From IMG/VR virus record IMGVR_UViG_3300008262_000055: 64,000 bases of DNA. One strand, given 5' to 3'. Position 1 is the first letter of the stretch. The number at the start of each line of letters is the position of its first letter. This document shows, piece after piece, positions 4,375 to 62,826 of this stretch. A program made the position numbers and the translations under genes. The notes under the pieces were generated by a model. It was not told where the DNA came from. It saw nothing but the letters and a program-made list of their open reading frames with translations, and did no database searches. Origin of the DNA: a virus. Lineage: Duplodnaviria; Caudoviricetes.

Positions 4375-4379
4375 AATAT

Positions 4380-4385
4380 TATTTA
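4380..4385 (-). promoter_or_regulatory. Late promoter TAAATA, 5 nt before ATG 4374
   Basis: CTAAATA-ATATT-ATG. Confidence 0.7.
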
Positions 4386-4390
4386 GTGAT

Positions 4391-4416
4391 AAAAAAAGCC
4401 CGGGGATTCCGGGCTT
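4391..4416 (-). terminator. Rho-independent terminator after the tail tube gene
   Basis: AAGCCCGG-AATCC-CCGGGCTT-TTTTT. Confidence 0.85.
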
Positions 4417-4433
4417 GATTTAATTTTGTGATA

Positions 4434-5066: not shown

Positions 5067-5088
5067 ATTCTTATGCTCCGGATAATAT

Positions 5089-5094
5089 TATTTA
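5089..5094 (-). promoter_or_regulatory. Late promoter TAAATA for the tail tube gene (22-nt leader with GGAG)
   Basis: GATAAATA-ATATTATCCGGAGCATAAGAAT-ATG. Confidence 0.7.
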
Positions 5095-5100
5095 TCTCTT

Positions 5101-5128
5101 ATAATTGGGGGACAAAGCCCCCAATTAT
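5101..5128 (-). terminator. 11-bp perfect hairpin immediately after the sheath stop (terminator or RNA-stabilising stem)
   Basis: ATAATTGGGGG-CTTTGT-CCCCCAATTAT; weak U-tract. Confidence 0.6.
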
Positions 5129-16176: not shown

Positions 16177-16522
16177 CTATTCTATCAAAAAATATAATTT
16201 CGTCGCAAACTTCTTGGCCTACAATAGGTTTGCCCATGTAATCGCTGCCCTTAACCATAGTGTCGCAGGCCGCAACAAGATTTATGAGTTCCAAATCAGT
16301 GTCGAATATCACAACTTCGTCAACTGCTTTTAGATTTTTGAGCATGTATGCTCGATATCGTTGATTGTTGATTGGTCGAGAAGACCCTTTTAGGCGGCGG
16401 ACACGATCGTCTGAATCAATGCCAACCATAAGATGATCTCCTAAACTTTTAGCATAGTTTAGAAGATCTATATGTCCCGGATGTAATATATCAAAAGAAC
16501 CGTTAACAAAAATCAGACTCAT
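16127..16522 (-). CDS. hldC: Heptose-1-phosphate nucleotidyltransferase (HldC / RfaE domain II; start revised to ATG 16522)
   Basis: NGSFDILHPGH (HIGH-type), VGIDSD..VRRLKG..RPIN, VDEVVIFD, GHSTT. Confidence 0.82.
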   Translation of the reverse strand: MSLIFVNGSFDILHPGHIDLLNYAKSLGDHLMVGIDSDDRVRRLKGSSRPINNQRYRAYMLKNLKAVDEVVIFDTDLELINLVAACDTMVKGSDYMGKPIVGQEVCDEIIFFDRIDGHSTTKIIQDIADRR

Positions 16523-16556
16523 GCTGTAATTATACAGCAAAGAGTCTCTTTGTCAA
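16523..16556 (-). promoter_or_regulatory. Consensus sigma70 promoter overlapped by two palindromes; probably leaderless transcript
   Basis: TTGACA (16556-16551) - 16 nt - TATAAT (16534-16529) - 6 nt - ATG; palindromes at 16538-16552 and 16523-16538. Confidence 0.8.
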
Positions 16557-16560
16557 CCTT

Positions 16561-19500
16561 TTAGGCTTGTGCTTCGCCCCAACGTAGAATAATGTTAGCG
16601 TTAACTGCTGTCCCAGACACCTTAAAGATGTTGATAGCCAACACGTCTGGACCATTTGGGAATGTACCTCTGCCACCTAGGGTAGTATTGGTTAATTCTT
16701 TCAATTCCGAAAGATCCAAACTGTCCGAACTTCCTGGTAAGCTAATGAATGAAAATACCTGTTCTCCAGGAAGAGCGTATGGAGGTTGTCCAAATTTAAA
16801 TGTTATTGTACTAGCACCTGCTACCACAGCATTAGAAGTCTGTGTAAATGTTACAGAGTAGTAGCCAGTACCACCAAATGTTCGTAGAGTGCTAACTGTG
16901 GCTACGCGAGTACCCGCAGCAAATTTAGCATCAGAAACTTCTGTGCCAGCACCTGCTGAATAAGTTGATACCAAGGTTTCCCAACTGGCCTGTGTGAAGT
17001 ATACAAAGTTGGTTACTGCGGTATTTTGTGCCAACGATAGTGTAATAGTTGCGTTAGCATTTACAGCCGCTGCTGTAGTTCTGGACAAGAACAAAGTATA
17101 ATACGGTATAGTATCAAAGGTCACGGTTGTTCCGCCTGCTAGTGTACCTATACAGTTATTACCAAAAACAACGGAGTAATATCCAACACCACCAAATGTC
17201 TGTAAACCGCTGATACCAGTTATTGTTGTTCCGCCAGTAAACTTGCCAGAGTCGTTAGTTGCTGTTCCTATCACAGGAACATCTACTGGTAGTGCTGTCC
17301 AACTGGCTGCTGTAAAGAACAGGTTATTGGTAGTTGTTCTAGAACCGCCAAACGCAGTGTTGATAGTTTGAGTCGACAATGGTAAATCAGAACTTAACCC
17401 TTGACTCATTGTTACAGTATAATATCTATTAGGTGATGTACCTTGTATACCCGAAACAGCTGATACTGTAGTTCCTCCTGGGAATGCCGATGTTACACTA
17501 AATCCAGTTTGTGTTATGTTGCTGGTCATATTATTCCAGCTAGCTTCTGTAATGTTCAATGTAGTCTGGCCTGCGACATAAGCGGTAGAAATTGTTCCGT
17601 TGTTATTAGCTCCGGTTGCTGTCGAATTGTATTGAACAAAGTTGTTGCCAGCCCCTGTTACAATATACGTTCCGTTATATGCGTTAGGGTTTACACCGGT
17701 TACCGTAATTCTAGAATTAACAGGGAAAGGCACATAACCTTGATTATTAAAAAATAATGTAGCTGTTACACCGTTACCTTGTGGGAAAGTTGTATTAACT
17801 GCCCTAAAAAACGTCTGCATGCTAGAAGTCAACGCACCCAACGTCGTAGCTACTGGACTTGGACTTGTTGCTACTGAAGATACTGTGGTACCTGCTTGGA
17901 ATTTGGTGTCCGAAGCTGCTATAGAGAATCCAGCAGTGGCACCTGACGTATTCCAGCTGGCCTGTGTTGCGTATACAAATGAAGACCCGCTAGCTCTATT
18001 AAATGCTGTCTTGTTAGGTACCGTTACGTTAGCAGTTACAGTATTCAATGCGGTAGCAGTAGCAGTAGGCTGAGCCACACCGCCCGCCCAGTTTACAGAA
18101 CCACCAGGAGCAATTTGAGCAAAGCTAGGTTGACCGCCAGCGGCAACACCTGTTAACCCCGACCAAACAATGTCGCTGGGGTTTGCGGGATAGTTCTGCG
18201 GATTCAACACCCCTTCAACAATGATACCGCCTGTGCCTGTATCTGATGTAACAGCAATTTCTTTCAACAATAATTGGGCTCTGTTTAACAATTCTCTATC
18301 ACCAAGATCGCCTACTACCGCATTCGAAACACTAGGTGCTAGACGAATTAGGAACGCAGTGGCTTTGGTTGTGCTAACACTTAGACCGGTAGACGCATAG
18401 TTAAAAATGTATCCTCGATCCGAGTCAAACAATCCGTCTGTTAGGAAAGCACTACCCCAGTGACTAATTAGTGGAGTTGTGGTGTTATTCATCAAGATAA
18501 CACCTGTTCCGGCACTATGGTTTGCGGCCACACCTGCTGTAAAGTTTCTATTAGCACCTGCTATGAATAAATCTAATTGAGCAGATCTAGTACATCCTGT
18601 TAGTGTATTTAGAGTTTGATCGATTCCTGTATAAGAAATCATTTCATTGTCTATATAAACAATACCAGTTTCTGGGAATCCTGCTATGCTTGCGACTGGT
18701 ACTACTGTACTAGTATTAGTAATATCGCTGACTAAGCTGCTGTTTGAACCGTAGTTTGAAACTTCATATCTAACAGGCAAGTTACCAGTACGCATATATG
18801 CTTCTGTATTGATGTTTGAGTTTCTCATCCTGTGTGCAAAAACATAATTACCGTCTGAACCTCTTAGCATAAAATCAATAAAACCAGCACCATACCACGA
18901 GTACTGGATTCCAATCATCTGCATCTTTGTAATATCTAAATCATAACCGCTGGGTCCAGTTCCATTTAATCGATCTTTGTTAAAGTCTGATTGCTGGACT
19001 CTAACTTCTGAGACTAAACTCATTTTAGCATTTGATACGTTGTTAACACCTCGGAAGTCTGGGTTAACAGTCATTGATGTCTGACTATCAACGTGTGTTA
19101 CTATGTGCGTCATACCCCTAATAGTAACAGCATCACCTGCTTTGATTTGATCTCGGAATCTACTATTAAGTCCTGTAACTCTGTTTGAACCAGAGTTTAC
19201 AGAAATAGTTCCTGCTAATTGTTTAGTAGAAGTACGCTGAACAGCCCAAAGAGTCTGTCCATCATATTCCCAGAAAATTCCATTTTGGTCGTCAAAAACT
19301 CCAGCACGAACAACTGCTCCTTTCCAACGTAAAGTAGAAATTTGACAGTTAAAACTTAGTGTAGGTTTTCTAGTTCCTACTCGTTTTGTAGCAATAATTC
19401 TAAATGTTCGTTCACTGACAATTTCATCAACTGTGTAATCGCCATCATAGCCACCAGTTGTTACACCGCTAAGACGTATAACAGCACCGCGTTGTAGACC

Positions 19501-26736: not shown

Positions 26737-26782
26737 AGTTACGCTCGTTGTATGTTATATTTAACTGATTTTTAGAGAAACT

Positions 26783-26807
26783 AAAAACCCCCTAAAAAGG
26801 GGGTTTT
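26783..26807 (-). terminator. Rho-independent terminator after the carbamoyltransferase gene
   Basis: AAAACCCCCT-TTTT-AGGGGGTTTT-T. Confidence 0.8.
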
Positions 26808-26808
26808 G

Positions 26809-28617
26809 TTAGCTATTAGCAATCTTGATCAGCTTACCGTATTCGGGTAAAAATAGATATTCTATATCACTTTTAACCAATGTTTCAATAGCATCGTCTA
26901 GAGTTTCAACTAGCGGATCGCCACCTAGGTTAAAGCTGGTATTAAAAATAATAGGAATTCCTGTTTGATCGTAAAATTCTTTGATAAGATCGTAATAGTG
27001 AGGATTTTGTTCACGCTTTACGCTCTGTATTCTACAAGTTCCGTCAACGTGTATGATACTAGGAATCTTTTCAGCTATACCTGGCTTACAATTTACAGCG
27101 TACATCATGTGTGGTGTTTCGTCCATGCCACGTAAATCAAACCACTCATGTACATGCTCGTGTATAATACTGCCAGCGAACGGGCGGAAATATTCTCTAC
27201 GCTTTACAGTGTTAACAAAATCTTTGCCATCTGGAAATGTAGGATCAAATAGCACACTGCGATTACCCAATGCTCTAGGACCGTTTTCTGAACGTCCTTG
27301 GAATATTGTAACAATATTCTTTTCCCGCAACAATTTTACTACATCTTTATTAGTAGCATCTACAACTTCTCCGCCAGCATAAGATACTTTATCCAGTATC
27401 TCTCTTTCTGCGTAGGTATACTGCGGTCCTAGATATAGTGTGTCTAATTTATGCTTTTCACGACTATCTGCCATAGCATGCCAAAACATTAATCCAGCAC
27501 CCATGGCTGTTCCGGCATCATTACTGATAGGTTCAACATAGATATTAATACCTTCATCTTTTAACTGTTCAAGATAATGATAATTTGCCACACAATTTAG
27601 GCCATATCCACCGCTGATAACAACATTCTTCTTGCCACTGATTTCTACAGCTTTACGGATTAATCTAACTACTTGTTCTTGTGTTTGTGTTTGACACGCA
27701 TAGGCAAGATCTCTACGACTTTGGAGTTTAGTAGTATCTTCACCTTCTTGCGGCAACTCGTCAAGATAGTCAAATAAAGCACTATTAACTACTGAAGAAG
27801 AAGGATAGGCAGGCACGATTAGATTTCGATTAGACAACGGAACCTTCGAAGTAAAATCAAACAACTTAGGAATCTTATCGTTGGGTTTACCGTAGGGAAA
27901 TAATCCCATGGTTTTTCCTGCTTCGATAGATGAGAACCCACAATATTCGGTGACAGCCTCGTAGGTTTTAACTATACCTGCTCTATCCGAAAGCCATGCT
28001 TCATGGAACTCACCTGCTTCTCCAAATTGATCTGAAGGGCATTTGTCCATGTATGTGCCAGCAACAGCTTCGCGAGCACCATAATTTTTATAAAGAGTCT
28101 TAAACTGTGAAGGGTATCCGCAGTCAATAATTGACTCTACTTCCCACACCCATAAAGGTTCGTTGCCGTACATTAATTGAATAAATGTACCAGCACCGTC
28201 AACAATCAGTGCTACCGCATCATCAAAACCACTGCGATAAAACGCACAGGCAGCGTGAAGCTTGTGATGCATAAAACTTAAATCGACAACCTGAGGATGA
28301 TTGTGATTGTCTTCTTTGCGACTAATCAATCCTAGCTTACGTGCTAGACCAGTGTAAATATCATCGCCACTGAAATCAATTCTAGCAGCAGTATCTGTTA
28401 ATTTCTGTGTATGTGCTACAACTAGATAATCTAACTTATCGGTGTATTCTAAAATTTTAACCATTGAAGCTAGCGGGCCGCCATCGTATTTTTGACGGGT
28501 TAATCTTTCTTCTTCAATAGAAAAAACAATTTCTCCGTCTTTGAATAAACATACACCAGCATTGTGGCCACGTGCTATGGCTGCGATCCAACCGGAATTA
28601 AGTTTAGGTTCTGTCAT
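26809..28617 (-). CDS. O-carbamoyltransferase (NodU/CmcH/TobZ family)
   Basis: GHNAGVCLFKDGE...EEERLTR, HHKLHA, DGAG, GKTMGL.PYG, GGYGLNCVAN, GPRALGNRS, VKRREYFRPFA, HVDGTCRIQ, NTSFN. Confidence 0.93.
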   Translation of the reverse strand: MTEPKLNSGWIAAIARGHNAGVCLFKDGEIVFSIEEERLTRQKYDGGPLASMVKILEYTDKLDYLVVAHTQKLTDTAARIDFSGDDIYTGLARKLGLISRKEDNHNHPQVVDLSFMHHKLHAACAFYRSGFDDAVALIVDGAGTFIQLMYGNEPLWVWEVESIIDCGYPSQFKTLYKNYGAREAVAGTYMDKCPSDQFGEAGEFHEAWLSDRAGIVKTYEAVTEYCGFSSIEAGKTMGLFPYGKPNDKIPKLFDFTSKVPLSNRNLIVPAYPSSSVVNSALFDYLDELPQEGEDTTKLQSRRDLAYACQTQTQEQVVRLIRKAVEISGKKNVVISGGYGLNCVANYHYLEQLKDEGINIYVEPISNDAGTAMGAGLMFWHAMADSREKHKLDTLYLGPQYTYAEREILDKVSYAGGEVVDATNKDVVKLLREKNIVTIFQGRSENGPRALGNRSVLFDPTFPDGKDFVNTVKRREYFRPFAGSIIHEHVHEWFDLRGMDETPHMMYAVNCKPGIAEKIPSIIHVDGTCRIQSVKREQNPHYYDLIKEFYDQTGIPIIFNTSFNLGGDPLVETLDDAIETLVKSDIEYLFLPEYGKLIKIANS

Positions 28618-29555
28618 TTTTTGTGTTTTCCTTGTACGGCTTCTATAATATAATTTTGTATTTCTGGAGTCATAGTCATTATAGGTTCGTGTTTTCTATC
28701 AATGCGTTCATCCATGGTAATTCTAATAGGACTATATTCACGGGTTTCTTCTCCCATATCTAAAATTGTAAATGTTTTACAATCTGGGTAAGAAACATTA
28801 ATAGGATATGTTGACCCAAATAGCACAGTTGAAGGTTTGTCTACACAATAGGCCAAATGCTGTCCTAAGCTGTCACAGCCTAAGAAATGATCTGCGTATT
28901 TGATAATTGCTGCCCATTGACGCATAGAAACATTTTCTGGCATGGCGATTTCATCTTTGAATTTTTCATCAGTAAAATCAATTTTAAACTCACTCATTAA
29001 AATTACACCAAATTCTTTTTCCTGTAATCTTTTAATTAGAGCTTTTGTATCTTTAAATTCTATGCTTCGACTAGTTGAGTCAACTAACGAATCGTCAACT
29101 ACTTGTATTCCGCGACCAAAAGGTTGGAATACTACAATTTTACTTTTCTTTAATTGTTTTTTAACATCGCCAATCAGCTTGCGACCTGTTAATAGCTCGT
29201 CTTTGCTGAGAATCAATGTAGGCTTAGGCAATGCTCTAATACCTTTTTTATTAATTTCAATATCGAACGCCTGTGCTATAGAACATTTTTGATTATAGTA
29301 TTCCCATATCCTGTAGGGTTCTGGGCTAACAATATCTCGATCTTTGATCTTTTCTAAGAAAAGATGTTTATGCCATACATCATACGTTCTAGCATCGAGG
29401 GTGGGGTGACCTTTAAAAACATCTGTGCCGCCCTCGCAGATGATGATGAAATCCTTGTCTCCGGATTCCTGTTCGTATTTTTCAAATGCGGGTATTGAGC
29501 ATAACATACGGCCCGCACCACCGTTTAAAAAAAATGCTTTAGAGCGTTGTTCCAT
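28614..29555 (-). CDS. Glycosyltransferase family 9 (ADP-heptose heptosyltransferase-like)
   Basis: N-terminal GGAGRMLCSIPA; C-terminal AIIKYADHFLGCDSLGQHLAYCVDKPSTVLFGST matches the GT9 'D.G..H.A.A...P...LFG.T' pattern; ATGA-coupled to the carbamoyltransferase. Confidence 0.78.
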   Translation of the reverse strand: MEQRSKAFFLNGGAGRMLCSIPAFEKYEQESGDKDFIIICEGGTDVFKGHPTLDARTYDVWHKHLFLEKIKDRDIVSPEPYRIWEYYNQKCSIAQAFDIEINKKGIRALPKPTLILSKDELLTGRKLIGDVKKQLKKSKIVVFQPFGRGIQVVDDSLVDSTSRSIEFKDTKALIKRLQEKEFGVILMSEFKIDFTDEKFKDEIAMPENVSMRQWAAIIKYADHFLGCDSLGQHLAYCVDKPSTVLFGSTYPINVSYPDCKTFTILDMGEETREYSPIRITMDERIDRKHEPIMTMTPEIQNYIIEAVQGKHKK

Positions 29556-29557
29556 TT

Positions 29558-29636
29558 AAACTCCAAGAAAATAGGTTCTGTCTTACTATGTATCACTACA
29601 ATAATAACACAGAACCTAGTCTTGGTTCAAGAGTTT
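29558..29636 (-). promoter_or_regulatory. Long RBS-sequestering hairpin containing a sigma70-type promoter
   Basis: Arms AAACTC/GAGTTT, CAAGA/TCTTG, TAGGTTCTGT/ACAGAACCTA, TTATTA/TAGTAA, TGTA/TACA, GTGA loop; TTGAAC (29630-29625) - 18 nt - TATTAT (29606-29601) with TG extension. Confidence 0.7.
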
Positions 29637-29638
29637 TT

Positions 29639-30286
29639 TTAAATTAAAGTTGGTAAGTTACTTGGGAATGGAATTTTCCAATGATCAACACCGGCGTAAA
29701 GTCTTTCCAAATCACGAAGCCATGCTATGTGAGCAGCAAAGGCTGTTCGGTCTTCATCTGTATAATCATTTATTTGTAGACTTTGTTCAATAGCTGTAGC
29801 TATATTTCTATAGTTTTCAATAAGACTTTGTTTAGTAACAGCGTGTAATCTATATTCTGGTCCTACAAATTGATTATTGATATATTTTAACGATTGGCCA
29901 TAAAAACATTGTCCAATTGATCCAGTATTATCATCGTAATGATATGTGTAGTTCCATTCGTTGCCGTCAGCATCGACTAAATCTGTCGAATAATCAGCAA
30001 CATCGCCAGTTTCATATGTATTCAACAAATAAGCGGCAGGAAACGGATGTTCGTTAGCGTCAATCAAATAAAATGTTGTTGCTGGATCATCATCTACAAG
30101 ATTATCAAAATCAATCTCTGCCAAAGACTCTCCTCTTCTAGCAATATATTTGATTTCGCCTGTAGCATCAATGACACAGATAGCGAAGTAACGAGGTCCA
30201 GTATAGACCGCATTCTGTACCTTGTTTAGAGCCGTGGTGTTTTTGTATGGCTCATCTGGTAATAAAAATGTAAAATTTTTTCTCAT
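29639..30286 (-). CDS. Probable tail-fibre assembly chaperone
   Basis: C-terminal DRTAFAAHIAWLRDL...WKIPFP resembles the phage tail-assembly chaperone 'YRqaLRDlP...WP' pattern; directly downstream of the Cys-rich genes; TAAATA at 30303-30308. Confidence 0.5.
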   Translation of the reverse strand: MRKNFTFLLPDEPYKNTTALNKVQNAVYTGPRYFAICVIDATGEIKYIARRGESLAEIDFDNLVDDDPATTFYLIDANEHPFPAAYLLNTYETGDVADYSTDLVDADGNEWNYTYHYDDNTGSIGQCFYGQSLKYINNQFVGPEYRLHAVTKQSLIENYRNIATAIEQSLQINDYTDEDRTAFAAHIAWLRDLERLYAGVDHWKIPFPSNLPTLI

Positions 30287-30305
30287 AATCTTCCTCTAAC
30301 ACTAT

Positions 30306-31274
30306 TTATGTAAAGAATCTAATTCTAACAGCACCCCATCCGCCGCGACCAGCATGGTCACGAACCCCTGGACATGGGCTTGTTGGGTATCCACCTGTTG
30401 CTGGTGGTGCGTAGTGAATACAGCCCTGCATTTCATAACATCCGCATTTTCTATCTGATCTCCAGCAATAGTTCATAGGAATGCCGCCGGTGGGCGATCT
30501 ACGCAATGCTGAAAACGCATTTACTTCCTGCATTAACGGTTGACCTGACCAGTTTGAATGTCTGTTGTCATCTTCAGCACCAAACGCTGCTACGTTATAA
30601 GGTCCGCAACTATAAAATCCTGCCGGAGATGCTGTGTGATATTGAAAACAGCAAGGACACTGTGGTAAGCAACCAAAGAATACTGAACAACTGAAATGAC
30701 CACAACAGTTTGTGTCACCGCCGTAAGCACAAGCAATCCAAATACCGTTAAAATAATTACAGATAACACCGCAGTTATCGTTAAATGGTCCTGTAAAACA
30801 GTGTGATTGGTTAACAAAGCAACAGAACAATGATGTTCCTGTAGAGCACATACCGCGGCCACCTGCTCCGCCCTGGGCACAGATACAACCGTTTTGAGCA
30901 GCAGCACACTGAGTCCAACATACTCCAGTAGGATCTGAACAACCACGGAAACACAATGCGGAACTGTTACCACAACTGTTACCAATAGTACCTCTTACAA
31001 AATCGGTTGAACTAACACAAATTGTTTTTTTAGAATAAGCACCTGCGTTACCTGGAGTACCTCCACCGCAGCAGCACATCTGTGCTCCGGATCCGCCAGC
31101 ACCCCATACTTCAATTACTGCTCTACCAGTTGATGGAGGATTCCAACAAAACCCGTTACAAAAGTTTGTATACATGGTACCTGGTGTGAACACATAGATT
31201 CTGCCTGTTTCTAGGTTTTCCTCTACGCGACCAGTTGTTCTTGATCTTATTAAATTTTGAAACGATGTAGGCAT
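30306..31274 (-). CDS. Cys/Gly-rich fibre-tip-like protein, paralogue 1 (about 33 Cys)
   Basis: IEVWGAGGSGA.MCCCGGG.PGN.GAYSKK...GRGGWGAVRIRF glycine-rich domain. Confidence 0.75.
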   Translation of the reverse strand: MPTSFQNLIRSRTTGRVEENLETGRIYVFTPGTMYTNFCNGFCWNPPSTGRAVIEVWGAGGSGAQMCCCGGGTPGNAGAYSKKTICVSSTDFVRGTIGNSCGNSSALCFRGCSDPTGVCWTQCAAAQNGCICAQGGAGGRGMCSTGTSLFCCFVNQSHCFTGPFNDNCGVICNYFNGIWIACAYGGDTNCCGHFSCSVFFGCLPQCPCCFQYHTASPAGFYSCGPYNVAAFGAEDDNRHSNWSGQPLMQEVNAFSALRRSPTGGIPMNYCWRSDRKCGCYEMQGCIHYAPPATGGYPTSPCPGVRDHAGRGGWGAVRIRFFT

Positions 31275-62757: not shown

Positions 62758-62776
62758 GACGATATTTAAGTCAAAC

Positions 62777-62800
62777 AAAAAGGCTCCGAAGAGCCTTTTT
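62777..62800 (-). terminator. Rho-independent terminator after the major capsid gene (UUCG loop)
   Basis: AAAAAGGCTC-TTCG-GAGCCTTTTT; same GGCTC-TTCG-GAGCC core as 869-896. Confidence 0.85.
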
Positions 62801-62826
62801 GAAACATATAAAATGTTTTTACTAGA

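Follow-up and report, generated by a model that had tools for sequence, protein, structure and literature searches.

A conserved long hairpin ahead of a GT9-like gene in freshwater T4-like cyanophages: a candidate merged terminator, sigma70-type promoter and ribosome-site mask

In phage T4 the genes e (lysozyme), soc, 49 and I-TevI are preceded by hairpins that sequester the ribosome-binding site and contain an internal promoter, and for e a 100-fold effect has been reported (PMC3014915). Promoter and stem-loop are also combined in the promoter-early stem-loops (PeSLs), which are sigma70 promoter/terminator cassettes found in RB49/phi1, T4/PST and KVP40/nt-1; in these the stem-loop, which was shown to terminate transcription, overlaps the -35 and -10 boxes or sits between them (PMC2839356, PMC4122927). 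Cyanophages are outside the coverage of these two papers. The T4-like cyanophages are without MotA and AsiA, their early and middle control having been inferred from motifs, and their late promoters follow the consensus NATAAATA (PMC2984593).

Here we analyse a hairpin in a 64,000-nucleotide stretch of viral DNA (hereafter the window) from a T4-like cyanomyovirus whose closest relatives in culture are the Synechococcus phages S-CAM1, Sf-FS3 and S-SSM7 (~54% amino-acid identity for the GT9-like gene). The sequencing runs that have words in common with the window were freshwater or lake metatranscriptomes only. One freshwater metatranscriptome contained 5% of the sampled words; placed on the window, it gave short contigs from diverged relatives only (85-95% alike), none of which covered 29414-30221. 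The hairpin is located in the 83-nt spacer that separates a 215-aa gene from a GT9-like glycosyltransferase gene, and the features of the locus, listed from upstream to downstream on the coding strand, are the following.

30303-30309, minus strand: ATAAATA resembling a late promoter; it lies 16 nt before the ATG of the 215-aa gene and overlaps the stop codon of the gene ahead of that one
29639-30286, minus strand: 215-aa gene directly upstream of the hairpin, with a conserved ...HWKIPFP C-terminus, syntenic in relatives
29558-29636, minus strand: long interrupted RNA hairpin with helices P0-P4, 31 pairs (26 without P0) and a GUGA loop, from RNAfold and relatives
29625-29630, minus strand: hexamer TTGAAC resembling a -35 box, within the bulge/5' flank of helix P1
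29601-29609, minus strand: extended -10-like element TG-T-TATTAT (TATTAT at 29601-29606) in the 5' arm, N18 from TTGAAC
29585-29590, minus strand: second, degenerate -10-like box CATAGT, counterpart of a TATAAT/TATAGT box at the apex or in the 3' arm in other clades
29565-29571, minus strand: U-run UUUUCUU, directly 3' of the 10-bp stem P2 and partly paired in P1
29561-29564, minus strand: Shine-Dalgarno (SD) sequence GGAG, separated by 5 nt from the GT9-like gene's ATG at 29555, GG paired in P1 and AG in P0
28614-29555, minus strand: GT9-like glycosyltransferase gene, 313 aa, weak match to PF01075; phrog_8954, 3e-137
26809-28617, minus strand: carbamoyltransferase gene, its start overlapping the GT9 stop (ATGA)
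26784-26807, minus strand: canonical GC-rich intrinsic terminator at the end of the two-gene GT9-like/carbamoyltransferase unit

With the T4 hairpins of e, soc, 49 and I-TevI the locus shares, at the level of sequence, an SD held in a helix on RNA started upstream and a promoter in the DNA of the 5' strand and loop, so placed that its own RNA would lack the inhibitory arm. The analogy with T4 e, soc and 49 (PMC3014915) that the earlier note had drawn is therefore apt, the SD lying in the hairpin base and the promoter inside. However, whereas the internal promoter of the T4 class is a late (gp55) promoter, TATAAATA, the one predicted here is of the sigma70 type (TTGAAC-N18-TATTAT), and the presumed read-through RNA is late-type, so that the timing would be reversed. 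In addition, the hairpin is much longer than those of T4, is followed by a terminator-like U-run and has a weaker computed mask. Similarly to PeSLs, it combines an AT-rich lead-in and a sigma70-like promoter with a promoter-overlapping stem-loop that can be read as a terminator or attenuator of upstream transcription, all between the upstream stop codon and the SD/ATG, and a PeSL-like layout is also present at the homologous site in P-SSM2. Unlike PeSLs, which are short, often built of G-run/C-run stems, present in many places per genome and linked to indels, this element measures ~30 bp, is AT-rich, occurs as a single copy in 64 kb between syntenically stable flanks, and has a stem that spans the -10 box and the +1 and reaches the SD. 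Repetition of the PeSL kind was not found in the 64-kb window, where the other intergenic regions hold short GC-rich terminators and ATAAATA, nor was an association with indels, the 215-aa gene and the GT9/carbamoyltransferase pair being syntenic in nearly all loci. Finally, the element resembles canonical intrinsic terminators in having a stable stem-loop directly before a U-rich tract and an A-rich tract upstream, at a gene end, but its stem is three times longer and AT-rich in the upper half, its U-run is interrupted, and it holds a promoter in the stem and the SD of the next gene in its base. As judged by these comparisons, it appears to be a variant on known kinds, in which terminator, promoter and ribosome-site mask would be merged around a host-type internal promoter in an arrangement conserved across the freshwater cyanomyovirus lineage.

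Fold and conservation of the hairpin

The hairpin comprises five helices, P0 (AAACU/AGUUU), P1 (CCAAGA/UCUUGG), P2 (UAGGUUCUGU/ACAGAACCUA, 10 perfect pairs), P3 (7 pairs including one U-G) and P4 (3 pairs), which is closed by the GUGA loop at 29596-29593. On the coding strand it folds with -32.3 kcal/mol (RNAfold; z = -5.05), a stability that was reached in none of 200 shuffles, and the opposite strand folds with -24.2 kcal/mol (z = -3.7). These values bear out three claims of the earlier note, namely a long interrupted stem with a GUGA loop and a U-G wobble, a preference of that stem for the coding strand, and a GGAG SD contained in the hairpin, where it lies in the base. The outermost helix P0 is part of the minimum free energy structure when the intergenic region is folded alone. 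The hairpin is among the strongest short-range inverted repeats of the window and is, per base, its most stable intergenic fold; no second copy of the element was found in the 64 kb. A search of Rfam gave no family at the gathering score, only chance-level matches to miRNA precursors (24 bits versus a gathering score of 53).

Viral contigs were scanned for homologues of the GT9-like gene, which yielded 80 loci with 57-99% identity, and in nearly all of them the conserved C-terminal codons of the 215-aa gene were present upstream. A long hairpin was found at the equivalent position in ~32 distinct upstream regions with ~25 different stem sequences, and the stems of relatives are unrelated in sequence, as illustrated by UAGGUUCUGU, AGUCUAACGUUAC, AAAGGCCUUGU, AAAGACUGGGUC and AACCGGACUUAAC. 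When the diverse loci were aligned with MAFFT and analysed with RNAalifold only 6 pairs were recovered, because this alignment is not structure-aware, and the result was superseded by a covariance model that was built on the window clade and recovered the hairpin in diverged clades. Since the covariance-model alignment also contained antisense hits, pairs were counted by script on the sense rows only. In these rows 90% of the cells hold canonical pairs, compared with 70% in shuffles (sd 0.9, max 73%), and with slid partners in the same alignment the fraction was 29-44%. The stem thus came through the check that the earlier note had proposed, RNAfold combined with covariation in relatives. The sense rows contain 67 extra pair types, a single column having for example U-A 15 times, C-G 16 times and G-C once, counts which come from mutually related sequences in an alignment fitted to the structure model.

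Moreover, G-U or U-G occupies 70 cells of the sense rows, as against 20 cells with A-C or C-A, and folding energy favours the sense over the antisense strand at 35 of 38 hairpin loci, with a mean difference of -5.3 kcal/mol, the hairpin-free loci having the opposite strand bias in fold stability. The excess of G-U over A-C together with the stability advantage of the sense strand indicates that selection acts on the sense RNA, and points to an RNA structure on the coding strand as the selected object. Tetraloops of the GNRA type are found in 10 of 32 hairpin loci, in two clades. An apical 7-bp helix, UAUAUCC/GGAUAUA, occurs in L019, L021, L024, L031, L035 and L044, and this helix is capped by GNRA loops (GAGA, GUGA, GUAA or GAAA) in 6 of the 8 loci of the L019 clade, and in the window clade the loop is GUGA. 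A second pairing target was considered for the 3' arm, of which 11 nt (GACAGAACCTA, 29572-29582, minus strand) recur at the start of the carbamoyltransferase gene (28605-28615, minus strand, ATGACAGAACCTA). The repeat is found in the window, in L001 and, over 10 nt, in L004, and is absent from L002, L006 and L009, all of which have the same hairpin; it was dismissed as due to chance or of recent origin.

The putative promoter, terminator and ribosome-site mask

The reading that we favour, with a probability of roughly 0.55, is that the hairpin is a composite terminator/promoter and translational mask, which would insulate the GT9-like/carbamoyltransferase unit from upstream transcription while allowing the unit to escape through the internal sigma70-type promoter. 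RNA started upstream, probably from the ATAAATA at 30303 and further up, would carry both arms and would form the hairpin, which together with the immediately following U-run would terminate part of these transcripts. In the RNA that reads through, the hairpin base would lock up the SD together with the U-run and the ribosome standby region, resulting in poor translation. The internal promoter TTGAAC-N18-TG-T-TATTAT, on the other hand, would start RNA in the GUGA loop that carries the 3' arm only, and since such RNA is without the 5' arm it would form no hairpin, would not be terminated by it and would have an open SD. The transcription unit of two genes would then end at the canonical terminator at 26784-26807. 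In this scheme the activity of the promoter and its start position, the termination of RNA, the degree to which translation would be lowered and the assignment to timing classes are all inferred from sequence.

The earlier note had placed a sigma70-type promoter in the 5' arm with the +1 in the loop, and the predicted boxes are indeed present, the predicted +1 at ~29593-29595 falls inside the GUGA loop, and the geometry recurs in every related clade. Within the window the promoter matches the consensus at 9 of 12 positions, and promoter-like sites number 19 in 10 kb compared with 25.8 expected, so that the match alone is not above chance and the support for a promoter comes from conservation in relatives. 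Two arrangements were distinguished. In type A, which comprises the window clade, L023, L010, L015 and L016, TTGA(A/C)(C/T)-N17/18-TATTAT lies in the 5' arm with the +1 in the apical loop, and the boxes are constant while the spacer, which is the stem, changes in sequence. In type B, represented by the L019 clade (8 loci), L029, L030 and L017, TTGnnn in the 5' arm is followed after N17 by TATAAT at the apex or in the 3' arm, and the +1 falls in the 3' arm. The TAAT of the -10 box is conserved in the L019 clade even though it lies in an unpaired bulge, which argues that the box is kept as sequence and not as a pairing partner. Likewise, the hairpin-free relatives L039, L050, L051 and L056 retain the box, in the form TTCACA-N18-TATAAT.

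In the second -10-like box TA.ATA is invariant in alignment A1, and in the window this 3' box has apparently decayed to CATAGT, as would be expected if the type A promoter is the one in use there. The best-scoring promoter starts upstream of the 5' arm in none of the clades; as read from these motifs, the rule that the RNA of the predicted promoter would itself lack the 5' arm is conserved although the position of the promoter has moved. The apex box can be parsed as TGnTAYATA, with TAnATA as the hexamer of an extended -10, but the hexamer two bases downstream was preferred, because TATAAT, TATAGT, TATACT and CATAGT share an A at position 2 and a T at position 6 and differ at position 5, as do sigma70 -10 boxes. 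The motif GATAYATART was considered for a promoter signature of the whole genome, but the window contains it just once. A hairpin promoter in single-stranded DNA of the Frpo type was ruled out, the -35 hexamer lying outside the hairpin duplex.

A feature absent from the earlier note's account of the hairpin is the U-run. The P2-P4 core (-22.8 kcal/mol) is directly followed by UUUUCUUG, with 6 U in 8, and relatives with a cleanly delimited core have 5-7 U in 8. All hairpin loci have a T-rich run 3' of the stem, which in L030 and L040 consists of seven U and in L011, L020 and L061 of eight. In those loci where the A-run pairs with the U-run, automatic delimiting of the core was inconsistent, and the run was read directly from the sequence. 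The hairpin was not flagged by a simple terminator scan of the window, because its stem is interrupted. Short GC-rich terminators occupy the equivalent site in S-CAM1, P-SSM2 and L026-L028. In S-CAM1 (L081, ~1420-1470) TGGTATAAT is followed by the terminator GGGGCGGGG...CCGCCCC with U6 and then by CATAAATA, and in L026-L028 the terminator AAAGCCCUC-UUCG-GAGGGCUUUUU precedes a separate TATAAT box. In P-SSM2 (L083, ~1377-1412) the terminator is AAAACCCTTGACT...GGTTGAGGGTTTT; its 5' arm includes TTGACT, and TATAAT lies 17 nt further on, just past the U-run, with a TATAAATA and a TGATATAAT further downstream. The conserved U-run and the canonical terminators at the equivalent site make termination of upstream transcripts at least as likely as pure translational silencing, and the hairpin site is, on this evidence, a conserved boundary between transcription units at which the predicted terminator and promoter are merged in the window lineage.

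At gene ends the phage has short hairpins, rich in GC and trailed by U-runs, such as AAGCCCGG-AATCC-CCGGGCTTTTTTT (4375-4433, 5067-5127, 26737-26808 and 62758-62826, minus strand), from which intrinsic termination seems to be common in this phage. The hairpin is unlike these terminators and its U-run is interrupted (UUUUCUU), so that termination by it may be weak. Read on the antisense strand, the complete hairpin with P0 runs into UUUUUUU, which is complementary to an A7 run (29634-29640) that holds the upstream stop codon; the terminator-like layout on this strand concerns 29612-29628 (plus strand) and the A7 run. As a bidirectional terminator the element could also stop antisense transcription.

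The conserved U-run and the plain terminators in relatives, combined with a window promoter match that does not by itself exceed chance, would also agree with an intrinsic terminator or 3'-end stabiliser that serves the 215-aa gene only, the promoter boxes being by-products of an AT-rich stem and the GT9-like gene being expressed by read-through or from elsewhere. We consider this unlikely, since it leaves unexplained why the -35 and -10 boxes remain constant at N17-18 while spacer and stem change, why the unpaired TAAT is conserved in the L019 clade and why hairpin-free relatives keep the same -10 box. Furthermore, no other promoter motif was found between 30303 and the GT9 start, and a stem of ~30 bp exceeds what termination needs, the other terminators of the phage being GC-rich and 8-10 bp long.

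The third component of the composite reading, the mask, follows the earlier note's claim that the hairpin hides the ribosome-binding site, and this claim was upheld in part. The SD is paired, and in the window opening of GGAG was computed to cost 5.7-6.2 kcal/mol in the long RNA versus 2.3-2.5 kcal/mol in RNA from either predicted +1, while opening of the region from -18 to +10 was computed to cost 10.2-10.7 kcal/mol versus 5.5-6.1 kcal/mol in the short RNA. The occlusion is, however, only moderate, the extra cost in the window amounting to 3.5 kcal/mol for the SD and 4.5 kcal/mol for -18 to +10. The long form is costlier to open in 30 of 31 related loci, by 6.2 kcal/mol on average, and the GG of the SD has a C-C partner in 30 of 32 distinct sequences. 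Clear anti-SD flanks are present in several clades, such as AAAUUCUAAA/UUUGGAGUUU in L011 and UUUCUCUAU/AUGGAGAAA in L049. When the flanks were shuffled, SD pairing was significant in 7 of 32 loci, representing 6 of ~15 clades. The window clade was not among them; for the window we therefore claim occlusion by the hairpin base only, and no anti-SD that evolved for that purpose. In the short RNA of the window clade the SD can also pair with a downstream GCUCU. From a thermodynamic initiation model we estimate that the mask would be worth roughly 7-8-fold. It would accordingly seem real but moderate, a back-up for RNA that escapes termination and not a switch of 100-fold as in T4 e.

The earlier note had gone further and seen in the hairpin a pure mask of the T4 e/soc type without termination, late read-through RNA remaining untranslated and host-promoter RNA being translated. 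The SD and standby region in the hairpin base, the computed extra opening cost here and in the relatives, the conserved internal promoter, the late motif upstream and the T4 precedent (PMC3014915) all agree with such a mechanism. Nevertheless we regard it as improbable, as the conserved U-run right behind a stable stem is what marks intrinsic terminators, plain terminators occupy the equivalent site in relatives, and the masking effect is moderate, with no significance in the flank-shuffling of the window clade.

A further possibility is that the stem is a site for RNase III, or for another double-strand-specific nuclease, at which the upstream and the GT9 messages would be split and the downstream part inactivated or activated. 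The processing sites known from T7 and lambda are long stems with internal mismatches. With 26-31 pairs the stem is above the ~20 bp or so expected at the least of an RNase III site and is longer than two helical turns, it has internal mismatches, and its length is conserved in all clades. Yet this explanation has a slim chance in our view, because it accounts neither for the conserved U-run nor for the embedded promoter, because the length of the hairpin is explained well enough by the need to span the promoter, and because a cut in the stem would free the SD and not silence it. An element acting at the DNA level, whether an operator palindrome, a cruciform or a PeSL-type recombination linker for gene shuffling, could be suspected from the overlap of the inverted repeat with the promoter, from the proposal that PeSLs are recombination sites (PMC2839356) and from a second sigma70 promoter in the window (16521-16556) that is also covered by palindromes, but it is very unlikely given that the G-U over A-C excess and the stability of the sense strand point to RNA, that the arms are free to vary in sequence, unlike those of an operator, that the element is single-copy in the window, and that both flanking genes are syntenic in nearly all loci, which gives no sign of shuffling here.

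Timing and the heptose genes

The composite reading separates the GT9-like/carbamoyltransferase pair from transcription that would begin upstream, and the class of that transcription was judged from the distribution of the late motif. ATAAATA, which matches the late-promoter consensus of cyanophages (PMC2984593), occurs 12 times in the window, always on the coding (minus) strand, compared with 29 copies expected on both strands. Such strand-exclusive and under-represented occurrence is the pattern of a late promoter that is used and otherwise avoided. The sites include 5089, 25156, 30303, 33626, 40007, 52687, 59195 and 62485, and several of them lie in intergenic spacers, just past short GC-rich terminators. 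There is no ATAAATA in 29556-29638 and none between the copy at 30303 and 25162, so the GT9 pair is without a late motif of its own. With a late motif upstream and none for the pair itself, late RNA would meet the hairpin and the pair would be driven by the host-type promoter. A timing that is reversed relative to T4, with late read-through blocked and a host-type promoter inside the hairpin, as the earlier note had proposed, is consequently plausible from the arrangement of these motifs.

In distant relatives late-like motifs stand before the GT9 homologue, TATAAATA in L036, CATAAATA in S-CAM1 and TATAAGTA in many, which indicates that the timing class of the gene is not fixed among cyanophages. 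In the hairpin-free loci L054, L058, L062, L064, L066-L069, L076, L077 and L079, CTATAAGTA(A/G)T is found ~15-40 nt upstream of the GT9 homologue. This motif may be a variant late promoter, and the timing of the gene may differ between lineages.

Elsewhere in the window, at 16521-16562 (minus strand), a promoter of perfect consensus, TTGACA-N17-TATAAT, stands 6 nt ahead of the ATG that opens the first heptose-pathway gene; no SD precedes this ATG, and the start looks leaderless. The palindromes CAAAGAG-A-CTCTTTG and GCTGTA-TAAT-TACAGC extend over the spacer and the -10 box of this promoter. From a leaderless start at 16.5 kb translation would come only from the gene's own promoter, similar to the layout at the GT9 hairpin. 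It is conceivable, although we put it forward only tentatively and hold it to be rather doubtful, that the hairpin constitutes a temporal gate opposite to that of T4 e and soc. The enzymes of heptose decoration (GT9-like and carbamoyltransferase) would then depend only on the unmodified host RNA polymerase, would be blind to heavy late transcription of the tail-fibre cassette around them and would be co-ordinated with the ADP-heptose operon at 16.5 kb as an 'own-promoter-only' regulon conserved in the freshwater cyanomyovirus lineage.

The regulation of genes in T4-like cyanophages is poorly understood, and the element offers a compact, conserved test case with many natural compensatory variants, for which precise 5' and 3' RNA ends are predicted, the former at ~29593-29595 or ~29578 and the latter at 29565-29571 on RNA begun at ~30296. 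It illustrates how an auxiliary gene pair driven by the host polymerase could be kept separate from late structural transcription. If the composite reading is true, cassettes of the PeSL type, in which promoter and terminator are combined, would extend to cyanophages. If, in addition, the reversal of timing is true, a promoter placed inside an inhibitory hairpin would be a general, bidirectional tool for timing and not a speciality of late genes.
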